Source: Planctomycetota bacterium | Lineage (GTDB): Bacteria; Planctomycetota; GCA-2746535 | Assembly (NCBI GenBank): GCA_002746535.1 | Contig: NVWA01000005.1 | Coordinates: 22,047-86,046, forward strand | Length of the DNA: 64,000 nt | Direction of reading: 5' to 3' | Part shown: one piece after another, positions 26,498 through 34,910 of the stretch | How the letters are laid out: each line of letters begins with the position of its first letter | Numbering within the stretch: position 1 is the stretch's first letter | Program-made: the position numbers and the translations under genes | Notes under the pieces: model-generated | Database searches by the model: none | The model's input: only the letters and a program-made list of their open reading frames with translations | What the model was told of the DNA's origin: nothing

Positions 26498-27652
26498 ATG
26501 CAAATACATACTATTGTGGATGAAAATATTCCACTAGCACGTGACATTTTCATACAATTCGGAAAAGTCACATTAATTAATGGTAGAAATATATTACAGA
26601 ATGACCTGAAAAATTCACAAAATCTTATAATTAGAAGTGTAACAAAAGTTGACAAAATGCTTTTAAAGAACACTTCAATAAAATTTGTTGGCACCTGTAC
26701 AATCGGGGAAGACCATGTCAACAAGGAAGAATTAAAAGAATTAGGTATAAAATTCCATAGCGCCCCTGGCTGCAATGCCCAATCTGTAGCAGAATACATC
26801 ATTTCATCACTTTTGAAATATTCTGATAATCGTAACATTTCATTACATGGTAAGTCTATAGGTATTATTGGAGTGGGTAATGTTGGTAAATTAGTTAATA
26901 AATATGCTCAATCTTTAGGAATGATAACAGTATTGAATGATCCTCCTCGACAGCGTCAGGAAAAAGATTCTGTATTTGATTCCTTTGAAAAGGTATTACA
27001 ATGCGACTTCATTACACTACATGTTCCATTAAATGAAAATGGGAGTGATAAAACATTGCATTTGTTTAATAAAAATGTATTTGAAAAAATGAATAGTGAA
27101 GCTGTTTTGATAAATAGTTGCCGAGGAAGTGTAGTAAAAAGTGACGACTTAAAATATGCTTTAGGCAAGAAGTTAATCAAAGATGCAATTATTGATGTTT
27201 GGGAAAATGAACCGACTATAGACAAAGAATTATTTGATTTATGTTTTATAGGTACTCCTCACATAGCAGGATACAGTTATGATGCAAAAATTAGAGGTGC
27301 CACAATGATAGCCAATGAGCTGGCTACGTTTATGAAAGTACCTGCTCAAGATTTCAGCAGCTTGATTAAAAGCGATAACATCAAACTAGAAGTTAAAATG
27401 CATGATGGCGACAACATGCTGGATACTCTCAAAAAGGTCACTGAATTATTATACAATCCTCTTGAGGATCATTTTAACCTAAACAAGGCCTTAAATTCTC
27501 TCGAACCAAAAAAATCCTTTGACGACCTAAGAAAAAACTACAAAAAGAGGAGAGAATTCCATATTTATCCTATTTATGTGAATCAAAATAATAGAATACA
27601 TGAACTACAAAAGTTCATGAGTCTATTTAATATTGTCTTAAAAACAGAATAA
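26498..27652 (+). CDS. pdxB: 4-phosphoerythronate dehydrogenase
   Basis: IVDENIP, IRSVTKVD, FVGTCTIGEDH, APGCNAQSVAEY, LHVPL, DVWENEP and TPHIAGYS. Confidence 0.93.
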   Translation: MQIHTIVDENIPLARDIFIQFGKVTLINGRNILQNDLKNSQNLIIRSVTKVDKMLLKNTSIKFVGTCTIGEDHVNKEELKELGIKFHSAPGCNAQSVAEYIISSLLKYSDNRNISLHGKSIGIIGVGNVGKLVNKYAQSLGMITVLNDPPRQRQEKDSVFDSFEKVLQCDFITLHVPLNENGSDKTLHLFNKNVFEKMNSEAVLINSCRGSVVKSDDLKYALGKKLIKDAIIDVWENEPTIDKELFDLCFIGTPHIAGYSYDAKIRGATMIANELATFMKVPAQDFSSLIKSDNIKLEVKMHDGDNMLDTLKKVTELLYNPLEDHFNLNKALNSLEPKKSFDDLRKNYKKRREFHIYPIYVNQNNRIHELQKFMSLFNIVLKTE

Positions 27653-27679
27653 TAATTCAGCGAGCCAATTAAAATAACA

Positions 27680-28249
27680 ATGAGATTAATAAAAGAATTC
27701 ATAAAGCACCCATCTAAAACGGGAAGTATCTCTCCTAGTTCTTCTTTTTTATCTCTAAAAATGCTTGAGCCATATACGGCAAACGAAAACCGAGGTTTTA
27801 TTGTCGAACTTGGCCCAGGTACAGGTGCCATTACCAAATATATTCTGGAAGAAATAAATGACATCAAGGATTTTCTTACCATAGAAATCAACACCAATAT
27901 GGTAAAACATTTAATTAAAAAATATCCGGAATTAGATATAGCGCCAATTTCCGCTGAATATCTCCACGAATATCTAACCGAAAAAAAATTACCAAAACCA
28001 AGTCACATAATATCGGGATTGCCTTGGGCTGTTTTTAAAGATGAATTACAAGATAAAATTTTAGAAAGTGTTTCGACATCATTAGAAGAAAATGGCTGTT
28101 TTACAACTTTTGCTTATCTTCATGCGTTAAAATTAAAATCAGCTATCAAATTTAGAGAAAAGTTAAATAAAACATTTTCTAAAGTCGAGACGACTTCACC
28201 TATCTGGAGAAATATACCTCCAGCAATAGTATACCATTGTCATTTATAA
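27680..28249 (+). CDS. Phospholipid N-methyltransferase-like SAM methyltransferase (PmtA/COG3963 type)
   Basis: TGSISPSS, VELGPGTGAIT, IISGLPW, FTTFAY and IWRNIPPA. Confidence 0.8.
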   Translation: MRLIKEFIKHPSKTGSISPSSSFLSLKMLEPYTANENRGFIVELGPGTGAITKYILEEINDIKDFLTIEINTNMVKHLIKKYPELDIAPISAEYLHEYLTEKKLPKPSHIISGLPWAVFKDELQDKILESVSTSLEENGCFTTFAYLHALKLKSAIKFREKLNKTFSKVETTSPIWRNIPPAIVYHCHL

Positions 28250-28255
28250 AATTAA

Positions 28256-29077
28256 TTATTGCTTGAAGCCCATGTAGTTTTCATGTCTCTCAGGGAAAGC
28301 ATGTTTGTACTTCTTCAACAAATTAGAAATTTGATAAGGACTTTTTACAACACCAGTAATATTAAATTCCTTGCAAATATTAATTATTTGAGGATCCAAT
28401 ACAGCAGTGTGAATTAGAATTTTCATATCTGGGTTTATATTTTTCAAATACTCTATAATCTCAACTTCTTTAAATTCAGGGTAAATTAATTCCACAATTG
28501 CACCATCTAAAATATGACCAAAACGTTTTGAAACTGCTAAACCTTCCTCATAACTATTTGCATCAATTGTAGAAAATCTATCCTTCAAAAAAGCTAACAA
28601 TAGAGATTCTCGCATCTGATTATCGCTCTCCATTACAAATATATTTCTAGTCATTTTCGACTCATATTTTTCAAGATACTTATCAGCTACACTTTTTAAG
28701 GCATCACTAACATGCAAAAAAGTAGGAATTGATTGAGTACGACTATATTTTTTGACCGATTCTATAGCAAGATTTCCACCTACAATTGAAAAATGAGTTC
28801 TCCATTCCAATGTCATAATAAACAATTCTTTAAAAACATTCAAATCAACACTAGAAAACTCAATGTCACTCGGAAATTGCAGAATAAAGGCAAAGATAGA
28901 ACCGTTCTTTTTGGCACTTTCAAACATTGAAATGAATTTCACTCTATGTTCAGCAAACAATTCTTTTTTAAATGAAATACAGACAACACCAAATAATTGG
29001 GTGGCGACGACATCATCTGTCTCTACATAGGCTAATCGCCCAAGATACAATCCTTTGAATTGAATTTCACTTAACAT
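28256..29077 (-). CDS. Atypical signalling protein: possible STAS-like N-domain plus Asp-less receiver
   Basis: C-terminal IFVMESD...AIVELIYP...ILIHTA...VVKSPY follows receiver topology with Glu at the phosphoacceptor position. RBS AAGGAG. Confidence 0.6.
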   Translation of the reverse strand: MLSEIQFKGLYLGRLAYVETDDVVATQLFGVVCISFKKELFAEHRVKFISMFESAKKNGSIFAFILQFPSDIEFSSVDLNVFKELFIMTLEWRTHFSIVGGNLAIESVKKYSRTQSIPTFLHVSDALKSVADKYLEKYESKMTRNIFVMESDNQMRESLLLAFLKDRFSTIDANSYEEGLAVSKRFGHILDGAIVELIYPEFKEVEIIEYLKNINPDMKILIHTAVLDPQIINICKEFNITGVVKSPYQISNLLKKYKHAFPERHENYMGFKQ

Positions 29078-29298
29078 TAAGAAATCTCCTTAATAAAATC
29101 AAATATAAGGGAGAACTCTTCAAAGGATTCTTAAATTCGGCTATTGCATTATTTAGATATTGGGTGGTAAACGACAAGTTCTTAAACTTTTCAATTATTA
29201 AATTTATATAGTTTGGAGTATCAACAAGCATGATTAGACTCTATAACAATTCACATCTCTATAGTAATATTATAATTTTTATACAACTAGAAATCAAA

Positions 29299-30495
29299 TT
29301 ATTCATCATTTCTTAATAAAAAGAGTGTATTTAAACCACCATTCTTGAATTTTAATGTTTTTGCTGTCTCTCTATCTGATTCAAGATTGAACACTTCTTT
29401 ATACATTTGATACATCTCTTTTTCTATAATCAGACCATATTTAACATTTTCTTGTAATCGCGATAATTCCTTCTTCAATAAATTGAACATATTTACCAAA
29501 GGTATATTGATTCTTTTCCCATAAGGCAAATTTGAAATTAATATGAATTTTTCCGATATCGCCACTTGTTCCAAAAACAAATTAAAATCCATATTTTTCA
29601 ATTCTATAAATTCTTCCAATTGGAGAATTCGTATTTCTTTTTGTAATTCGGTAATCACATTTTTATCGAGATCATTTAAGAATACTTTTAATGGTGTTTT
29701 ATGTATTTTCTCACGAGCTAAATCTTTTAAATCTTGCCATCTTTTCTTTTGAAAATAAGGAAAATCTTCAAAAGAGAATTTTCTAATCAATCCTGGAGCT
29801 TGATTCCATTTAAGAAATATGTATTCAAAAGCAATGGTTCCCGATCCACAAAAGGGATCAACAAGAATATTTGGTAATTCCCCTGCCGTTTTCAATAATC
29901 CACGAACAATATTCTCTCGAATAGGCGCATTACCTACAAACTTTCGGTATCCCCGTTTATATAAATGGTCACCTGTCGTATCAAGACTTATTTGACATCG
30001 ATCTTGAAATATTCTTATGTAGAATTTAATCGAAGCATCTTTAGAATTCTTAATATTAAGCTCAAAAGAATTCATTGTATTTTCAATACATTCTTCACAG
30101 GTGCGTCCAATATTACCTGTATGATGCAGCCTAGATTTTTTTGCAGATATTTTCAGAGAATAGGCAGAATGATTTCCAATAAAAACCTCCCAATGAATTC
30201 TTTTTAGCTTCTGAAATAATTCCGGATAGCTACCAACATAAAATTCAGCAATTCTAACTAAGACTCTATTACCTACCCCAGAATGCAAATTCAAAGCATA
30301 AACTGTTTTCCAATCACCAGTTAATTGTAGGCCTTCGTTTTTAACACAATTTATGTTTAGGTTTAATAAAGATAAATCCTGTTTAGCAACTTCTACTAAA
30401 CCCGTTGGACAAGGAATAAAAATCTCTAATTTCTCTTTAGGAAAGTATTTTTTAATGCGACGTTTCAATGCATTATTGGTTAATGAAGTTGTCAT
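29299..30495 (-). CDS. THUMP-domain RNA methyltransferase (RlmL/RlmK-like N-terminal module)
   Basis: CPTGLVEV, NRVLVRI, SLDTTGDHLYKRGYR, APIREN, DPFCGSGT and SNLPYGKR. Confidence 0.85.
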   Translation of the reverse strand: MTTSLTNNALKRRIKKYFPKEKLEIFIPCPTGLVEVAKQDLSLLNLNINCVKNEGLQLTGDWKTVYALNLHSGVGNRVLVRIAEFYVGSYPELFQKLKRIHWEVFIGNHSAYSLKISAKKSRLHHTGNIGRTCEECIENTMNSFELNIKNSKDASIKFYIRIFQDRCQISLDTTGDHLYKRGYRKFVGNAPIRENIVRGLLKTAGELPNILVDPFCGSGTIAFEYIFLKWNQAPGLIRKFSFEDFPYFQKKRWQDLKDLAREKIHKTPLKVFLNDLDKNVITELQKEIRILQLEEFIELKNMDFNLFLEQVAISEKFILISNLPYGKRINIPLVNMFNLLKKELSRLQENVKYGLIIEKEMYQMYKEVFNLESDRETAKTLKFKNGGLNTLFLLRNDE

Positions 30496-30641
30496 TTGAT
30501 TTTTAGGTTTTTCATTTAAATTATTAAACGATGGTCATATCGTCTTTTAATTGATTTTCTACTAAAAAACCGATAATTCCACCCTCTTAAATCAACACAT
30601 GATTTTATACAATTTAGAAATTAATTATTTAAGGAAGGAAA

Positions 30642-32246
30642 ATGGTCAAAAGCAAAAACACGCCAAAAAAACTGGAAATTTATGACACTACATTGAGAGA
30701 TGGTTGTCAAGCTGAAGGAATTCAATTCTCTACACCTGATAAGATTGAATTTACTCAAATTCTAGATGATTTTGGTATTGCTTATATTGAGGGTGGCTGG
30801 CCAGGCTCAAATCCTTCTGCAATAGCATATTTTAAAGAAATACAAAAAGTAGAACTTAAAAATATTAAAGTTGCCGCATTTGGGAGCACAAGAAGAGCAA
30901 AAATATCCCCTGCGAAAGATCCTAATATAAAAGCATTATTAGATGCCAATGTACCTGTCGTAACTATTTTTGGAAAATCCTGGGACATGCATGTTACAGA
31001 TGCCCTTAGGGTACCTCTAAAAGAAAATTTAAAGATGATTGAAGAATCTGTTAGTTACTTATTAAGCAAGAAAAAAGAAGTCGTGTATGATGCGGAACAT
31101 TTTTTTGATGGATTTAAAAAAAATAAAGATTACGCCATCGAAACTATCGCTGCTGCAATAAAAGGTGGTGCCAAGACATTAGCCTTATGTGATACAAATG
31201 GCGGAACGCTTCCTCTTGAAATAGAATCCATTCTAATAGAAATAAAAAGTGAATTTCCAAATTCTAATTTTGGCATACATGCGCACAATGATTCAGGTGT
31301 TGCCATTGCCAACACACTCACAGCAATCAATTGTGGGTCATCACATATACAAGGCGTAATGAATGGATTTGGCGAAAGGTGTGGAAATGTAAACTTAATA
31401 ACTGTCATTGCTATAACTGCACTAAAAATGGGTATCAAATCTATTAAGCCGTCTAAAATAAAAAAACTTCAATATTTAAGCAAAATAGTAGATGAATTTG
31501 CTAATCAAGAAAATGACAAGCGTGCACCCTTTATCGGTGCAAGTGCATTTGCTCACAAAGGTGGTATCCATGTAAGTGCCGTACAACGCAATAGCGCTTG
31601 CTATGAACATATCGACCCCGCATTAGTTGGGAACAGACAACGAATACTTTTATCAGAGCAATCTGGACGTTCCAATATTCATCAAATTGCTGAATCTGCT
31701 GGAATAAATCTAAAAAAGCATGAGGGTTTAGATAAATTATTATTAAAACGAATCAAAGAATTAGAAGAAACGGGTTATGAATTTGAAGGCGCCCTAGCCT
31801 CTTTTGAATTAATCATGGATGATCTTTTAGAAAAGAGACAACACTATTTTGAGCCTAAAGGATTTCGAGTAATTGGCGAAAATAGAGATAACAATTCAAT
31901 CGCGGAAGCAACCGTCAAAGTAAGTGTAAACGGAACAGAACATTTAGCTGTATCAGAAGGGAATGGTCCGGTTAATGCTCTAGACCAAGCATTAAGAAAT
32001 GCCTTAAGACCATTTTTCCCTGGTATTGATAAAATATACTTGCAAGATTACAAGGTAAGAGTCTTTAGTCAAAAGCGTGCAACAGCATCAAGAGTAAGAG
32101 TATTGATTACTTCAAAAATAAAGGGCGAAAACTCCTGGAGTACTGTTGGTGTCTCAGAAGATATCATTGAAGCTTCGTGGGAAGCCCTATTGGATAGTAT
32201 TTCATATGCCTTTAAAAAATATAAGCATCTAATTTTAAAAAAATAA
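30642..32246 (+). CDS. cimA: Citramalate synthase (LeuA/CimA family)
   Basis: YDTTLRDGCQAEG, YIEGGWPGSNP, YDAEHFFDG, LCDTNGG, IHAHND, GFGERCGN, FAHKGGIH, GNGPVNALD and DYKVR. Confidence 0.9.
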   Translation: MVKSKNTPKKLEIYDTTLRDGCQAEGIQFSTPDKIEFTQILDDFGIAYIEGGWPGSNPSAIAYFKEIQKVELKNIKVAAFGSTRRAKISPAKDPNIKALLDANVPVVTIFGKSWDMHVTDALRVPLKENLKMIEESVSYLLSKKKEVVYDAEHFFDGFKKNKDYAIETIAAAIKGGAKTLALCDTNGGTLPLEIESILIEIKSEFPNSNFGIHAHNDSGVAIANTLTAINCGSSHIQGVMNGFGERCGNVNLITVIAITALKMGIKSIKPSKIKKLQYLSKIVDEFANQENDKRAPFIGASAFAHKGGIHVSAVQRNSACYEHIDPALVGNRQRILLSEQSGRSNIHQIAESAGINLKKHEGLDKLLLKRIKELEETGYEFEGALASFELIMDDLLEKRQHYFEPKGFRVIGENRDNNSIAEATVKVSVNGTEHLAVSEGNGPVNALDQALRNALRPFFPGIDKIYLQDYKVRVFSQKRATASRVRVLITSKIKGENSWSTVGVSEDIIEASWEALLDSISYAFKKYKHLILKK

Positions 32247-33851
32247 ATGAAAATTTTAGCCATTGAAACAAGTTCAACATATGGCAGCATTGCCTTATTT
32301 GACGAGACTAATTTAATCCAAGAGACTCCATTTAAAACAAATGAAAATTTTGGACAAAATATTTTTCTTTATATTAAAGAAATTCTTTCGTCAAATAATC
32401 TTTCGATTAAAGATATTGATTTAATCGGAGTCAGTCATGGTCCTGGCTCTTATACAGGATTACGAGTTGGAATTACATGTGCAAACACTCTTTCATGGGT
32501 TAATAAAATCCCCATAATTGGTATTAGCTCACTTTTTTCAATGGCTATTAACACAACCATTTTAGAAGAATCTGTAAATGCGATCATATATAGCAACCCC
32601 AAGGAAGCTTTTTTTGGTCAATATAAATTCGAAAATAATAAATGGAAAACCATCATAACAGATCAAAAAATTCAGTGGAATGATTTAGACGATCATATAA
32701 CACCAAACCAAGAATTCTTTTATTTTGGAAACAAACCTATTCCTATAGAAATCAAAAATTCAAATACCATCAGTGAATGGACACCCAAAGCAGAAAGTAT
32801 TGGAAAATCTGTATTAACTGCCTTTAATACAAATACTGAAACTAATTTTGGAACTATACAGCCAAATTATCTAAAAGACTTTGAGGTAACCCCTAAAAAA
32901 AAGCGTGCTATGAGTGATACTGATGTGATTCATGTTTTATCTGGTGAGCGAAAGTGTCGCTTTGTCAGAAAACTAGTTACGGGCGGTATGGGTAGCATTT
33001 ATTTGGCAAAACAAATTGGCGTAGCAGGTTTTTCAAAAACAGTTGCCATTAAAACAATTCATCCAAATCGATTATGTGAAGACATGGTCGTCAAATTATT
33101 TCTGGATGAAGCAAAGTTAGTTGCTGACCTAATTCATGAAAATATTGTGCAAGTTTATGACCTTGGCAAACAACATGATCTATATTACATTATCATGGAA
33201 TATGTAGATGGAAAATCTATCTCACAAATATTATTGCAATTACAAAATAAAAATAAGGTATTTGACAACACCACCGCATGTGTCATAGGTTCAAAAATTG
33301 CAAAAGCACTTCATTATGCTCATTCAAAAACTGATGATAATGGAAATCCACTTGGAATAGTACATAGAGATGTTACCCCAGGAAACATAATGATTAGCAC
33401 TGAAGGAGTCGTGAAATTAGCTGACTTTGGAATTGCAAAAGCTTTACATATTGATGGACCAGATGAGAAAAAAATGATCATGGGGAAGCTACCCTATATG
33501 TCCCCTGAACAAATTCACGCTCTAGGCACCGACTCAAGAACTGATATATTCACATTAGGCCTTGTCATGTATGAAATGCTTACCTGTAAGCGTGTTTTTG
33601 ATGATATTAAAAATCGAAAAGATTTAATTCACAAAATGAATAATTATAGAATTATTTCTCCCAATAAAATTAATCCAAAAATATCTGATGACGTAAATGC
33701 CGTAATTATGAAAAGTTTAAATCTTGATAAAGAGGAACGCTATCAAAGTGCAGAGGATTTTCAAAACGACCTCAAATTAATTCTGTACGGAAATGGCTTT
33801 ATTGATCCCCAATTAATATTGAAAGATTTCCTAAAAAAGACTTATACCTAA
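32247..33851 (+). CDS. tsaB: In-frame fusion: TsaB (t6A biosynthesis, 32247-32909) plus Hanks-type Ser/Thr protein kinase (32910-33851)
   Basis: TsaB: MKILAIETS, DLIGVSHGPGSYTGLRVG, QPNYL. Kinase: GGMGSIY, VAIK, EAK, HENIV, IMEYVDG, HRDVTPGN, DFG, YMSPEQ, DIFTLG and ERY. Confidence 0.85.
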   Translation: MKILAIETSSTYGSIALFDETNLIQETPFKTNENFGQNIFLYIKEILSSNNLSIKDIDLIGVSHGPGSYTGLRVGITCANTLSWVNKIPIIGISSLFSMAINTTILEESVNAIIYSNPKEAFFGQYKFENNKWKTIITDQKIQWNDLDDHITPNQEFFYFGNKPIPIEIKNSNTISEWTPKAESIGKSVLTAFNTNTETNFGTIQPNYLKDFEVTPKKKRAMSDTDVIHVLSGERKCRFVRKLVTGGMGSIYLAKQIGVAGFSKTVAIKTIHPNRLCEDMVVKLFLDEAKLVADLIHENIVQVYDLGKQHDLYYIIMEYVDGKSISQILLQLQNKNKVFDNTTACVIGSKIAKALHYAHSKTDDNGNPLGIVHRDVTPGNIMISTEGVVKLADFGIAKALHIDGPDEKKMIMGKLPYMSPEQIHALGTDSRTDIFTLGLVMYEMLTCKRVFDDIKNRKDLIHKMNNYRIISPNKINPKISDDVNAVIMKSLNLDKEERYQSAEDFQNDLKLILYGNGFIDPQLILKDFLKKTYT

Positions 33852-34910
33852 ATGAGATACTGTTCTAGCTCAACATTATCTATAATATTGATTTTTTTTA
33901 TTTTATATTCACTCACCTCCTGCAAAACAAATCGCAATAGCACCAAACAAAATAAAGTAAAAGCTATCAAGTACATAATCGATCATCAAGAACAAGATGG
34001 CGCCTGGTCTGTCATCAAGCAACAGGGGAATTATCAAAATAAAGATGGCATTATAGCCGTCACCTCCATAGCTATTGTATCTCTATTAAACAATAAAGAG
34101 CCTGGATCATCTGAAAATATTAGATCATCTATCAAAAAAGGACTTGCTTATTTATTGAGAAATCAAACGTCAAAAGGAAATATAGGAAAACATAATTATG
34201 CCAATGGCCTTAGTTTTTATGCCATATCCCTGGCAATTACAAAAAAAATAATACCGCCAAATAAATCCCACAAAAAACTATTTATAAATATTTTATCAAA
34301 ACAGAGTGGAATTGGAGCATGGGATTATTCAATTGCTAATAACCACAGAAATGATCTATCCATATCAGCATGGGTTGCTTTAGGTCTCGCAGAATGTCTC
34401 AAATTAAATGACTATAAAAAAGAAGCTTCACAATCAATAAACAAGTTAAATCAAATGCTTCGTAAAGACCAAACAGGTGCAGGTGACAATTCAATTACTA
34501 CAAAAGCAGGAAGCGCCTATACTTATGGCAATAAACCTAATTTAAACTCTGGGAAAGAAACACGAAAGCCTGGATCCACAATACAAGCGATCGTCCTAAG
34601 AATTAAAGCCATCAATAATCAAACTTTTAATATTTCTAATTGGGTGTTGAAAGCTATAAACGATCAAACAAATAAAAAAATAAAACCTGAAAAGATAAAT
34701 TATTACCGTCTATTCTTTTTCACATCTACTTTGAATTTAACGCAATCATCAAATCAAAATAATTGGAAAAAGAAAACATTAAATACTATAAACAACTCTC
34801 AACAAAAGGACGGTAGCTTCCCTCTGACAACAATAAATATGAAATTTGGTGGGAAAATCATTTCGACAGCTATTACCTTATTAACAATAAATAATTTAAA
34901 TAAAAAATAA
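33852..34910 (+). CDS. Lipoprotein with prenyltransferase/squalene-oxidase (QW-like) repeats
   Basis: Lipobox LTSC; repeats HQEQDGAW, NQTSKGNI, KQSGIGAW and SQQKDGSF. ATG directly follows the kinase stop. Confidence 0.7.
   Translation: MRYCSSSTLSIILIFFILYSLTSCKTNRNSTKQNKVKAIKYIIDHQEQDGAWSVIKQQGNYQNKDGIIAVTSIAIVSLLNNKEPGSSENIRSSIKKGLAYLLRNQTSKGNIGKHNYANGLSFYAISLAITKKIIPPNKSHKKLFINILSKQSGIGAWDYSIANNHRNDLSISAWVALGLAECLKLNDYKKEASQSINKLNQMLRKDQTGAGDNSITTKAGSAYTYGNKPNLNSGKETRKPGSTIQAIVLRIKAINNQTFNISNWVLKAINDQTNKKIKPEKINYYRLFFFTSTLNLTQSSNQNNWKKKTLNTINNSQQKDGSFPLTTINMKFGGKIISTAITLLTINNLNKK

Follow-up and report, generated by a model that had tools for sequence, protein, structure and literature searches.

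A predicted in-frame fusion of the t6A protein TsaB to a Hanks-type kinase in a planctomycete hinges on one adenine

Does a planctomycete make the tRNA-modification protein TsaB as one polypeptide with a Ser/Thr protein kinase, and would such a protein be a bacterial counterpart of archaeal Kae1-Bud32? The question is raised by an open reading frame (ORF) of 534 amino acids (aa) in a stretch of 64,000 nucleotides (nt) from a Planctomycetota bacterium (assembly GCA_002746535.1, contig NVWA01000005.1, positions 22,047 to 86,046 of the forward strand). This whole stretch is called the window below, and its own numbering is used throughout. An earlier note made from the letters of the window had read the frame as a complete TsaB, which takes part in synthesis of N6-threonylcarbamoyladenosine (t6A), joined to a complete soluble kinase, and had proposed an analogy to Kae1-Bud32. 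Our analysis recovers the frame and both of its halves, and a genuine, recent and lineage-specific fusion appears the probable origin, by expansion of an A run by one base before an ATGA stop/start overlap. The analogy to Kae1-Bud32 finds no support. The features on which the argument depends are the following:

32247..33851, + strand: 534-aa fused frame, TsaB plus Hanks-type Ser/Thr kinase (ORF list, domain matches)
32247..32909, + strand: TsaB part, residues 1-221 (TIGR03725 match)
32964..33755, + strand: protein kinase catalytic domain, residues 240-503 (PF00069, PknB model)
32883..32886, + strand: Shine-Dalgarno (SD)-like GAGG within conserved FEV codons, 10 nt 5′ of a slippery heptamer (sequence)
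32895..32902, + strand: homopolymer of eight A (A8), whose length sets fused (A8) or separate genes (A7 or A9) (sequence)
32910..32913, + strand: ATGA, the putative ancestral kinase start and latent tsaB stop of the A7 frame (alignment with L013/L014)

The fused frame, its junction and its relatives

The frame opens with ATG, and its two halves are both complete. The TIGR03725 (T6A_YeaZ) equivalog model matches residues 3-210 over its entire profile (1-212 of 212) with 124.7 bits against a cut-off of 69.3, and the Pkinase model PF00069 matches with 151.1 bits (gathering cut-off 31.7). The nearest relatives of the TsaB half are stand-alone proteins of 216-219 aa that are 45-49% identical to it, and the closest solved structures are those of YeaZ/TsaB (3r6m, 4wq4 and 1okj). 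It is also the sole TsaB in the genome to which the window belongs (G000), the other match there being TsaD. As in the TsaB (YeaZ) of the bacterial TsaBDE system, the N-terminal 221 residues cover the full model and TsaD and TsaE are encoded elsewhere. The difference lies in the 313-residue C-terminal kinase, since other TsaB proteins are either stand-alone (216-260 aa) or fused otherwise (TsaB+Sua5/YrdC). A protein with the latter architecture was encountered in the searches: P0123 (304 aa, Joint Genome Institute, JGI) combines TsaB (PF00814) with Sua5/YciO/YrdC (PF01300), a TsaB-TsaC type fusion of two components of the t6A pathway.

At the junction the letters read ..TTT GAG GTA ACC CCT AAA AAA AAG CGT GCT ATG AGT GAT.., and the length of the A run decides on the outcome. 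With A8, the frame runs through ..FEVTPKKKRA into the kinase ATG at 32910 and continues with MSDTD.., and the two ancestral proteins are set apart by only three codons (K-R-A). With A7, tsaB would end in ..PKKSVL at a TGA (32911-32913) overlapping the kinase ATG (32910-32912), which gives a TsaB of 222 aa and a kinase of 313 aa. With A9, or after a -1 shift, tsaB would end in ..KKKACYE at TGA 32915-32917 as a product of 223 aa.

In the nearest relative the two genes overlap. The closest kinase, which is 94% identical and 316 aa long, comes from two Logan samples (L013 and L014), where the junction reads CCCCT-A7-GAAAC-CTATGAGC and tsaB ends in ..PKKRNL at a TGA overlapping the kinase ATG. Compared with this junction, the window has one A more, plus substitutions in the following five bases. 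Separate tsaB and kinase genes are found in all 10 further related loci that were compared, with kinases of 316-325 aa and TsaB proteins of 216-226 aa, the latter range covering completely called genes (the tsaB of L017 was split by the gene caller and has no full length). The tsaB genes of the relatives end 3-8 residues past a conserved FEVT motif, and in place of A8 the relatives have A7, A6 or no run, each with an ordinary stop codon. The junctions between tsaB and the kinase gene are:

L013/L014: ATGA overlap
L015/L016, L112 and L113: 13-nt spacer
L115: 15-nt spacer
L017: 97-nt spacer
L111: 378-nt spacer
L108 and genome G007: a 500-aa metallo-β-lactamase (MBL)-like gene between the two

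No fused homologue was found among the best 120 matches of the whole protein against 5.8 billion proteins, all of which are stand-alone kinases of 296-430 aa. When the TsaB region was searched against proteins 294-934 aa long, three matched, one of them the TsaB+Sua5/YrdC protein and none with a kinase. Moreover, none of the best 150 protein representatives contains a TsaB domain, which excludes a TsaB-kinase protein only at scores of at least 236 bits. Exact look-up found no entry for the 534-aa protein or for the 313-aa kinase, and a junction pattern with 6-10 bases between the flanks had no match in metagenome contigs or genome contigs. Thus, although the protein searches are of limited reach, they agree with the earlier note, whose author knew of no other TsaB-Hanks kinase fusion. 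Within the reach of the searches made, and as judged from the letters, the fusion is unique to the window's lineage and joins two known families in a domain combination that is new and not found elsewhere. Two long frames of 711 and 806 aa in genomes G033 and G024 were considered as further fusions and rejected; they are high-GC (guanine-cytosine) open frames with a TsaB domain only. The best representatives for the kinase (P0244-P0260), which dominate the search of representatives, are proteins of 630-2570 aa carrying Hanks kinase domains in tandem, from two to six per protein.

We consider the following course of events the probable one. In the clade, tsaB and the gene of a small soluble Hanks-type kinase adjoin within a conserved cimA-tsaB-kinase-lipoprotein operon. 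The tsaB stop would have overlapped the kinase start (ATGA) in the ancestor of the lineage, an overlap retained by the nearest relative, and the Lys-codon A run just 5′ of the overlap would have gained one A (A7 to A8). Because of this gain, the tsaB frame would miss its stop and pass through the K-R-A codons into the kinase ATG, giving the predicted 534-aa polypeptide. Loss of the stop in an ATGA overlap is the standard route to such gene fusions, and it is equally what a homopolymer error typically looks like. The locus fits this route in that one homopolymer base puts the upstream frame in phase and the A7 relative would represent the ancestral state, and nothing about it is unusual for an event of this kind.

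The fusion would be a recent and probably near-neutral event. In t6A synthesis, TsaD and TsaE from their separate genes presumably remain the partners of the TsaB part, the kinase being simply tethered by about 28 residues outside the two domains (211-239). A C-terminal fusion is plausibly tolerated, since the C-terminal tail of TsaB is disordered, poorly conserved and dispensable for formation of TsaBD (PMC6009658). In addition, ordinary slippage on the A8 run may leave a few percent of free TsaB. If real, the locus would be a caught-in-the-act case of an overlapping stop/start gene pair turning into a fusion protein.

The status of the eighth A

The fusion would disappear if the true DNA had A7 and the eighth A were an assembly or sequencing artefact. 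In that case the genome would carry two ordinary separate genes, translationally coupled via the ATGA overlap, as the A7 of the nearest relative and the separate genes of all relatives would lead one to expect. A second assembly, found by exact look-up of the protein of cimA, the gene upstream of tsaB, argues for A8. This contig of 15,628 nt from the JGI metagenome 3300029925 (L116) is 100% identical to positions 27642-33386 of the window over 5745 nt without a gap, A8 included. It is distinct from the 221-kb contig of the window in its length and in its ends, and its own gene call is an open product of 380 aa that begins at the tsaB start and runs off the end of the contig.

Genome-wide figures likewise speak for the accuracy of the run. 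The genome has a GC content of 33.6%, and 86.9% of it is taken up by ORFs of 100 aa or more, whose mean length is 362 aa. Sites at which a homopolymer lies between two long frames in the manner of a frame break make up 61 of 17366 (0.35%), compared with 219 of 86830 random sites (0.25%), and homopolymer frameshifts are thus not in excess in this genome. Moreover, intact ORFs of 200 aa or more contain, deep in their interior, 1306 A/T runs of 8 or more bases.

Three points weigh against a genuine A8. First, L116 may have been built from the same reads as the window's genome. Second, the whole fusion rests on one homopolymer base, and a homopolymer right at a stop/start overlap is a classic place for a one-base assembly error. 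Third, the genome contains 1002 N, all of them single ambiguous bases that are densely clustered, for the most part at intervals divisible by three, and that resemble polymorphic third positions of codons in a consensus of co-occurring strains and not scaffold gaps; because the genome is such a population consensus, an A7/A8 polymorphism could be hidden in it. Weighing these points against the second contig and the genome-wide figures, we hold it quite likely, as far as the assembled letters tell, that A8 is the true majority sequence, and an artefact at this position unlikely.

The clusters of ambiguous bases lie outside the window, for example at C9:5784-7431, C73:6782-7782, C78:4842-6801, C90:10912-11541 and C10:3078-3738. 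Several contigs end within the locus: L013:1 and L014:1, from the two Logan samples, both break at the identical base in tsaB, 119 nt 5′ of the kinase start, and L116 ends directly after the HRDVTPGN codons of the kinase (position 33386 of the window). Such shared break points suggest assembly-graph forks from co-occurring strains or from paralogues with near-identical kinase segments. Furthermore, ARAGORN predicted 79 tRNA genes in G000, with many anticodons represented exactly three times, and also a tRNA-Ile(UAU), which is an unusual set for this genome, estimated to be 89% complete and 2.35% contaminated.

The kinase and the comparison with Kae1-Bud32

By its profile matches, the kinase is PknB-like and not Bud32-like. 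Positions 13-272 of the PknB_PASTA_kin model match with 234.8 bits, whereas the Bud32 models stay far below their cut-offs (TIGR03724, 24.1 bits, cut-off 125; PRK14879 models, 16-38 bits, cut-offs 174-372). The closest solved structures are Staphylococcus aureus PknB (Stk1, 4eqm), StkP and Mycobacterium tuberculosis PknB, and the DFG...SPE activation segment and the full C-lobe align with the PknB structures up to about residue 296 in the kinase part (313 aa). The window kinase shares with PknB, Stk1 and StkP the full eukaryotic-type protein kinase domain with VAIK Lys, alpha-C Glu, HRD, Asn, DFG and SPE, but has no transmembrane segment, PASTA repeats or other sensor. In a family alignment of 14 sequences, the VAIK Lys, alpha-C Glu, HRD Asp, catalytic-loop Asn, DFG Asp and SPE are invariant. 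The VAIK, HRD, DFG and SPE motifs had been called intact before; all of them are present, but the kinase departs from the textbook form in its Gly loop (VTGGMG) and in its catalytic loop:

33363..33386, + strand: catalytic loop HRDVTPGN, with Thr for the Lys of Ser/Thr kinases (HRDVTPxN invariant in 14 aligned members)

The loop therefore lacks the Lys of the HRDxKxxN pattern by which Ser/Thr kinases are recognised. Among the 21 HRD..DFG kinases of G000 this position is Lys in 16, Ser in three, Thr in one and Cys in one, the kinase described here being the only one with a T-type loop. The Thr occupies the position of a Thr in the catalytic loop of PRPK (HGDLTTSN; PMC7864929). As a signature of Bud32 the loop Thr was rejected, Ser, Thr or Cys standing at this position in five of the 21 kinases. 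We treat it as a family trait, and the catalytic activity of the kinase as predicted only. The family to which the kinase belongs, with members of about 320 aa that lack a sensor and have an xTGGMG glycine loop and the invariant HRDVTPxN, is widespread in Planctomycetota and strongly conserved.

At the level of domain order, the frame does resemble the archaeal Kae1-Bud32 proteins (MJ1130, HVO_1895), since a protein of the Kae1/TsaD/TsaB superfamily with the ASKHA (acetate and sugar kinase, Hsc70, actin) fold is followed by a kinase fold in one chain. The ASKHA partner here, however, is the non-catalytic TsaB. TsaB pairs with TsaD via an N-terminal helical bundle, which is mimicked by Pcc1-Kae1 in KEOPS, and thus takes the place of Pcc1, while Bud32 binds the C-terminal domain of the catalytic Kae1 (PMC6009658). 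Therefore, the topology of the fusion is unlike that of Kae1-Bud32. Furthermore, the kinase fold of Bud32/PRPK is truncated and RIO-like, lacking the activation segment and the helices that follow alpha-F (PMC7864929), in contrast to the full-size Hanks kinase of the window. The phylogenetic pattern differs as well: in 53 archaea, Kae1 and Bud32 are fused in 25 and adjacent in 13 (PMC4615747), whereas the window fusion is a singleton. Both TsaD (G000:C13:48261-49211, 416.9 bits, cut-off 296.1) and TsaE (C93:16698-17078, 99.8 bits, cut-off 60.1), the presence of which the earlier note had proposed to check, were found on other contigs; nothing is therefore missing that the kinase would have to replace. 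With a fusion in a single lineage, a PknB-type kinase, TsaB and not Kae1/TsaD as the partner, and TsaE present, the fusion does not qualify as a Bud32-like part of the t6A machinery.

A looser relation is conceivable in which the kinase would act as a dedicated component or regulator of TsaBDE, for example by phosphorylating TsaB, TsaD or TsaE, and in which the fusion would end a selection for co-expression or co-localisation, loosely parallel to Kae1-Bud32. The order cimA-tsaB-kinase is indeed common to all 11 loci of the clade, and the spacing between tsaB and the kinase falls from a whole gene in between through 378, 97, 15 and 13 nt and an overlap (-4) to the fusion. In addition, the sensor-less kinase is far more conserved than its neighbour (94% identity compared with 66% for the adjacent lipoprotein), and its loop Thr stands where PRPK/Bud32 has a Thr. 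Beyond the clade, however, the linkage is lost. In about 10 other planctomycete families, TsaB is encoded on another contig than the best orthologue of the kinase (42-50% identical), and among 40 genomes of other planctomycete families tsaB and the orthologous kinase share a contig only in G007, with one gene between them. For two further kinase orthologues, both on long contigs, the neighbouring genes are unrelated and tsaB does not occur within 5 kb, and a search for related loci starting from TsaB yielded two distant loci, both without a kinase. As a negative control only, TsaB was found within 4 kb of none of 80 loci of other, unrelated Hanks kinases (at most 41% identical). As far as gene order can tell, the linkage is a local synteny with shrinking spacers in one narrow clade and not a phylum-wide trait. 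The wide margin by which the Bud32 models fail, the contact of Bud32 with Kae1/TsaD and not with the TsaB/Pcc1 position (PMC6009658), the presence of TsaE, and Ser, Thr or Cys in place of the loop Lys in four other kinases of the genome argue in the same direction. We therefore regard a dedicated role of the kinase in TsaBDE as very unlikely, and the suggestion that phosphorylation is wired into tRNA modification here is opposed by the clade-restricted linkage, by a kinase unrelated to Bud32 and by the presence of TsaE.

A stronger version would combine a real A8 with the fusion as a selected end point: the kinase would be a dedicated partner of TsaBDE, t6A would be set by phosphorylation or by a Bud32-like ATPase switch, and slippage on A8 would give some free TsaB. 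We give this version hardly any credit. The locus would gain more weight only if the tsaB-kinase operon of the clade reflected phosphorylation control of the universal t6A modification, against which the present evidence speaks. In annotation, the label “bacterial Kae1-Bud32 analogue” should not be passed on with this frame.

Recoding at the A run and the surrounding gene run

The least probable reading treats the A run as a programmed recoding site like that of Escherichia coli dnaX, at which the zero frame would give TsaB-kinase, and a -1 shift on A_AAA_AAG or transcriptional slippage would give free TsaB of 223 aa in a set ratio. As in dnaX, the heptamer A_AAA_AAG is in phase (32897-32903) and an SD-like element (GAGG) lies 10 nt upstream; the 3′ end of the 16S rRNA has a CCUCC anti-SD, and SD-like motifs occur upstream of 18% of starts in this genome compared with 4.5% in the control. 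However, a slippery heptamer in phase is part of every A8 run, and A8 runs are ubiquitous in this AT-rich genome, with 1106 of them inside long ORFs. The GAGG falls within the conserved FEV codons and also occurs in L013, the relative with A7, whereas L015 and L112-L115 have GAAG. Compared with dnaX, the downstream fold appears weak and poorly placed: it begins 13 nt past the heptamer and reaches -23.3 kcal/mol with z = -1.87, and 11 of 200 shuffles fold as well. Moreover, a direct AAG reader, tRNA-Lys(CUU), is present, and in work on E. coli dnaX a cognate AAG reader reportedly lowers shifting. Since neither A8 nor a fused frame occurs in any relative, a two-product layout is not conserved, and programmed recoding can be set aside as most improbable.

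On either side of the fused frame, the tight gene run in which tsaB and the kinase lie consists of:

30642..32246, + strand: cimA (citramalate synthase), which opens the conserved run (TIGR00977, 688.9 bits, cut-off 450)
33852..34910, + strand: lipoprotein gene, product resembling a TED (thioester domain)/prenyltransferase-like alpha-alpha toroid, which closes the run (weak Pfam matches)

The cimA product carries the Pfam domains HMGL-like, HCS_D2 and LeuA_dimer. The lipoprotein matches TED_complement, SQHop_cyclase_C and Prenyltrans, all of them weakly, and a lipobox (LTSC) is seen in its translation. The gaps of zero nt that had been reported on both sides were confirmed by the coordinates: the cimA stop abuts the tsaB start (32246/32247), and the fused frame abuts the lipoprotein gene (33851/33852). 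Within the run from cimA to the lipoprotein gene, no promoter-like or terminator-like signal stands out.

The tight cimA-tsaB-kinase run, with or without the TED-like lipoprotein, is kept in a clade of uncultured relatives, as cimA lies upstream of tsaB in L015, L017, L108 and L111-L115, and the lipoprotein gene 3′ of the kinase in L013, L016, L112 and L113. A different arrangement was observed in a sister lineage (L108:3502-7721 and L025, which is G007:C12). There, the gene between tsaB and the kinase encodes a 500-aa MBL-fold protein with a weak match to Anti-Pycsar_Apyc1 and a faint one to Lactamase_B, and the kinase gene is followed by the gene of a GAF-GAF-HD protein, with all genes overlapping or abutting.

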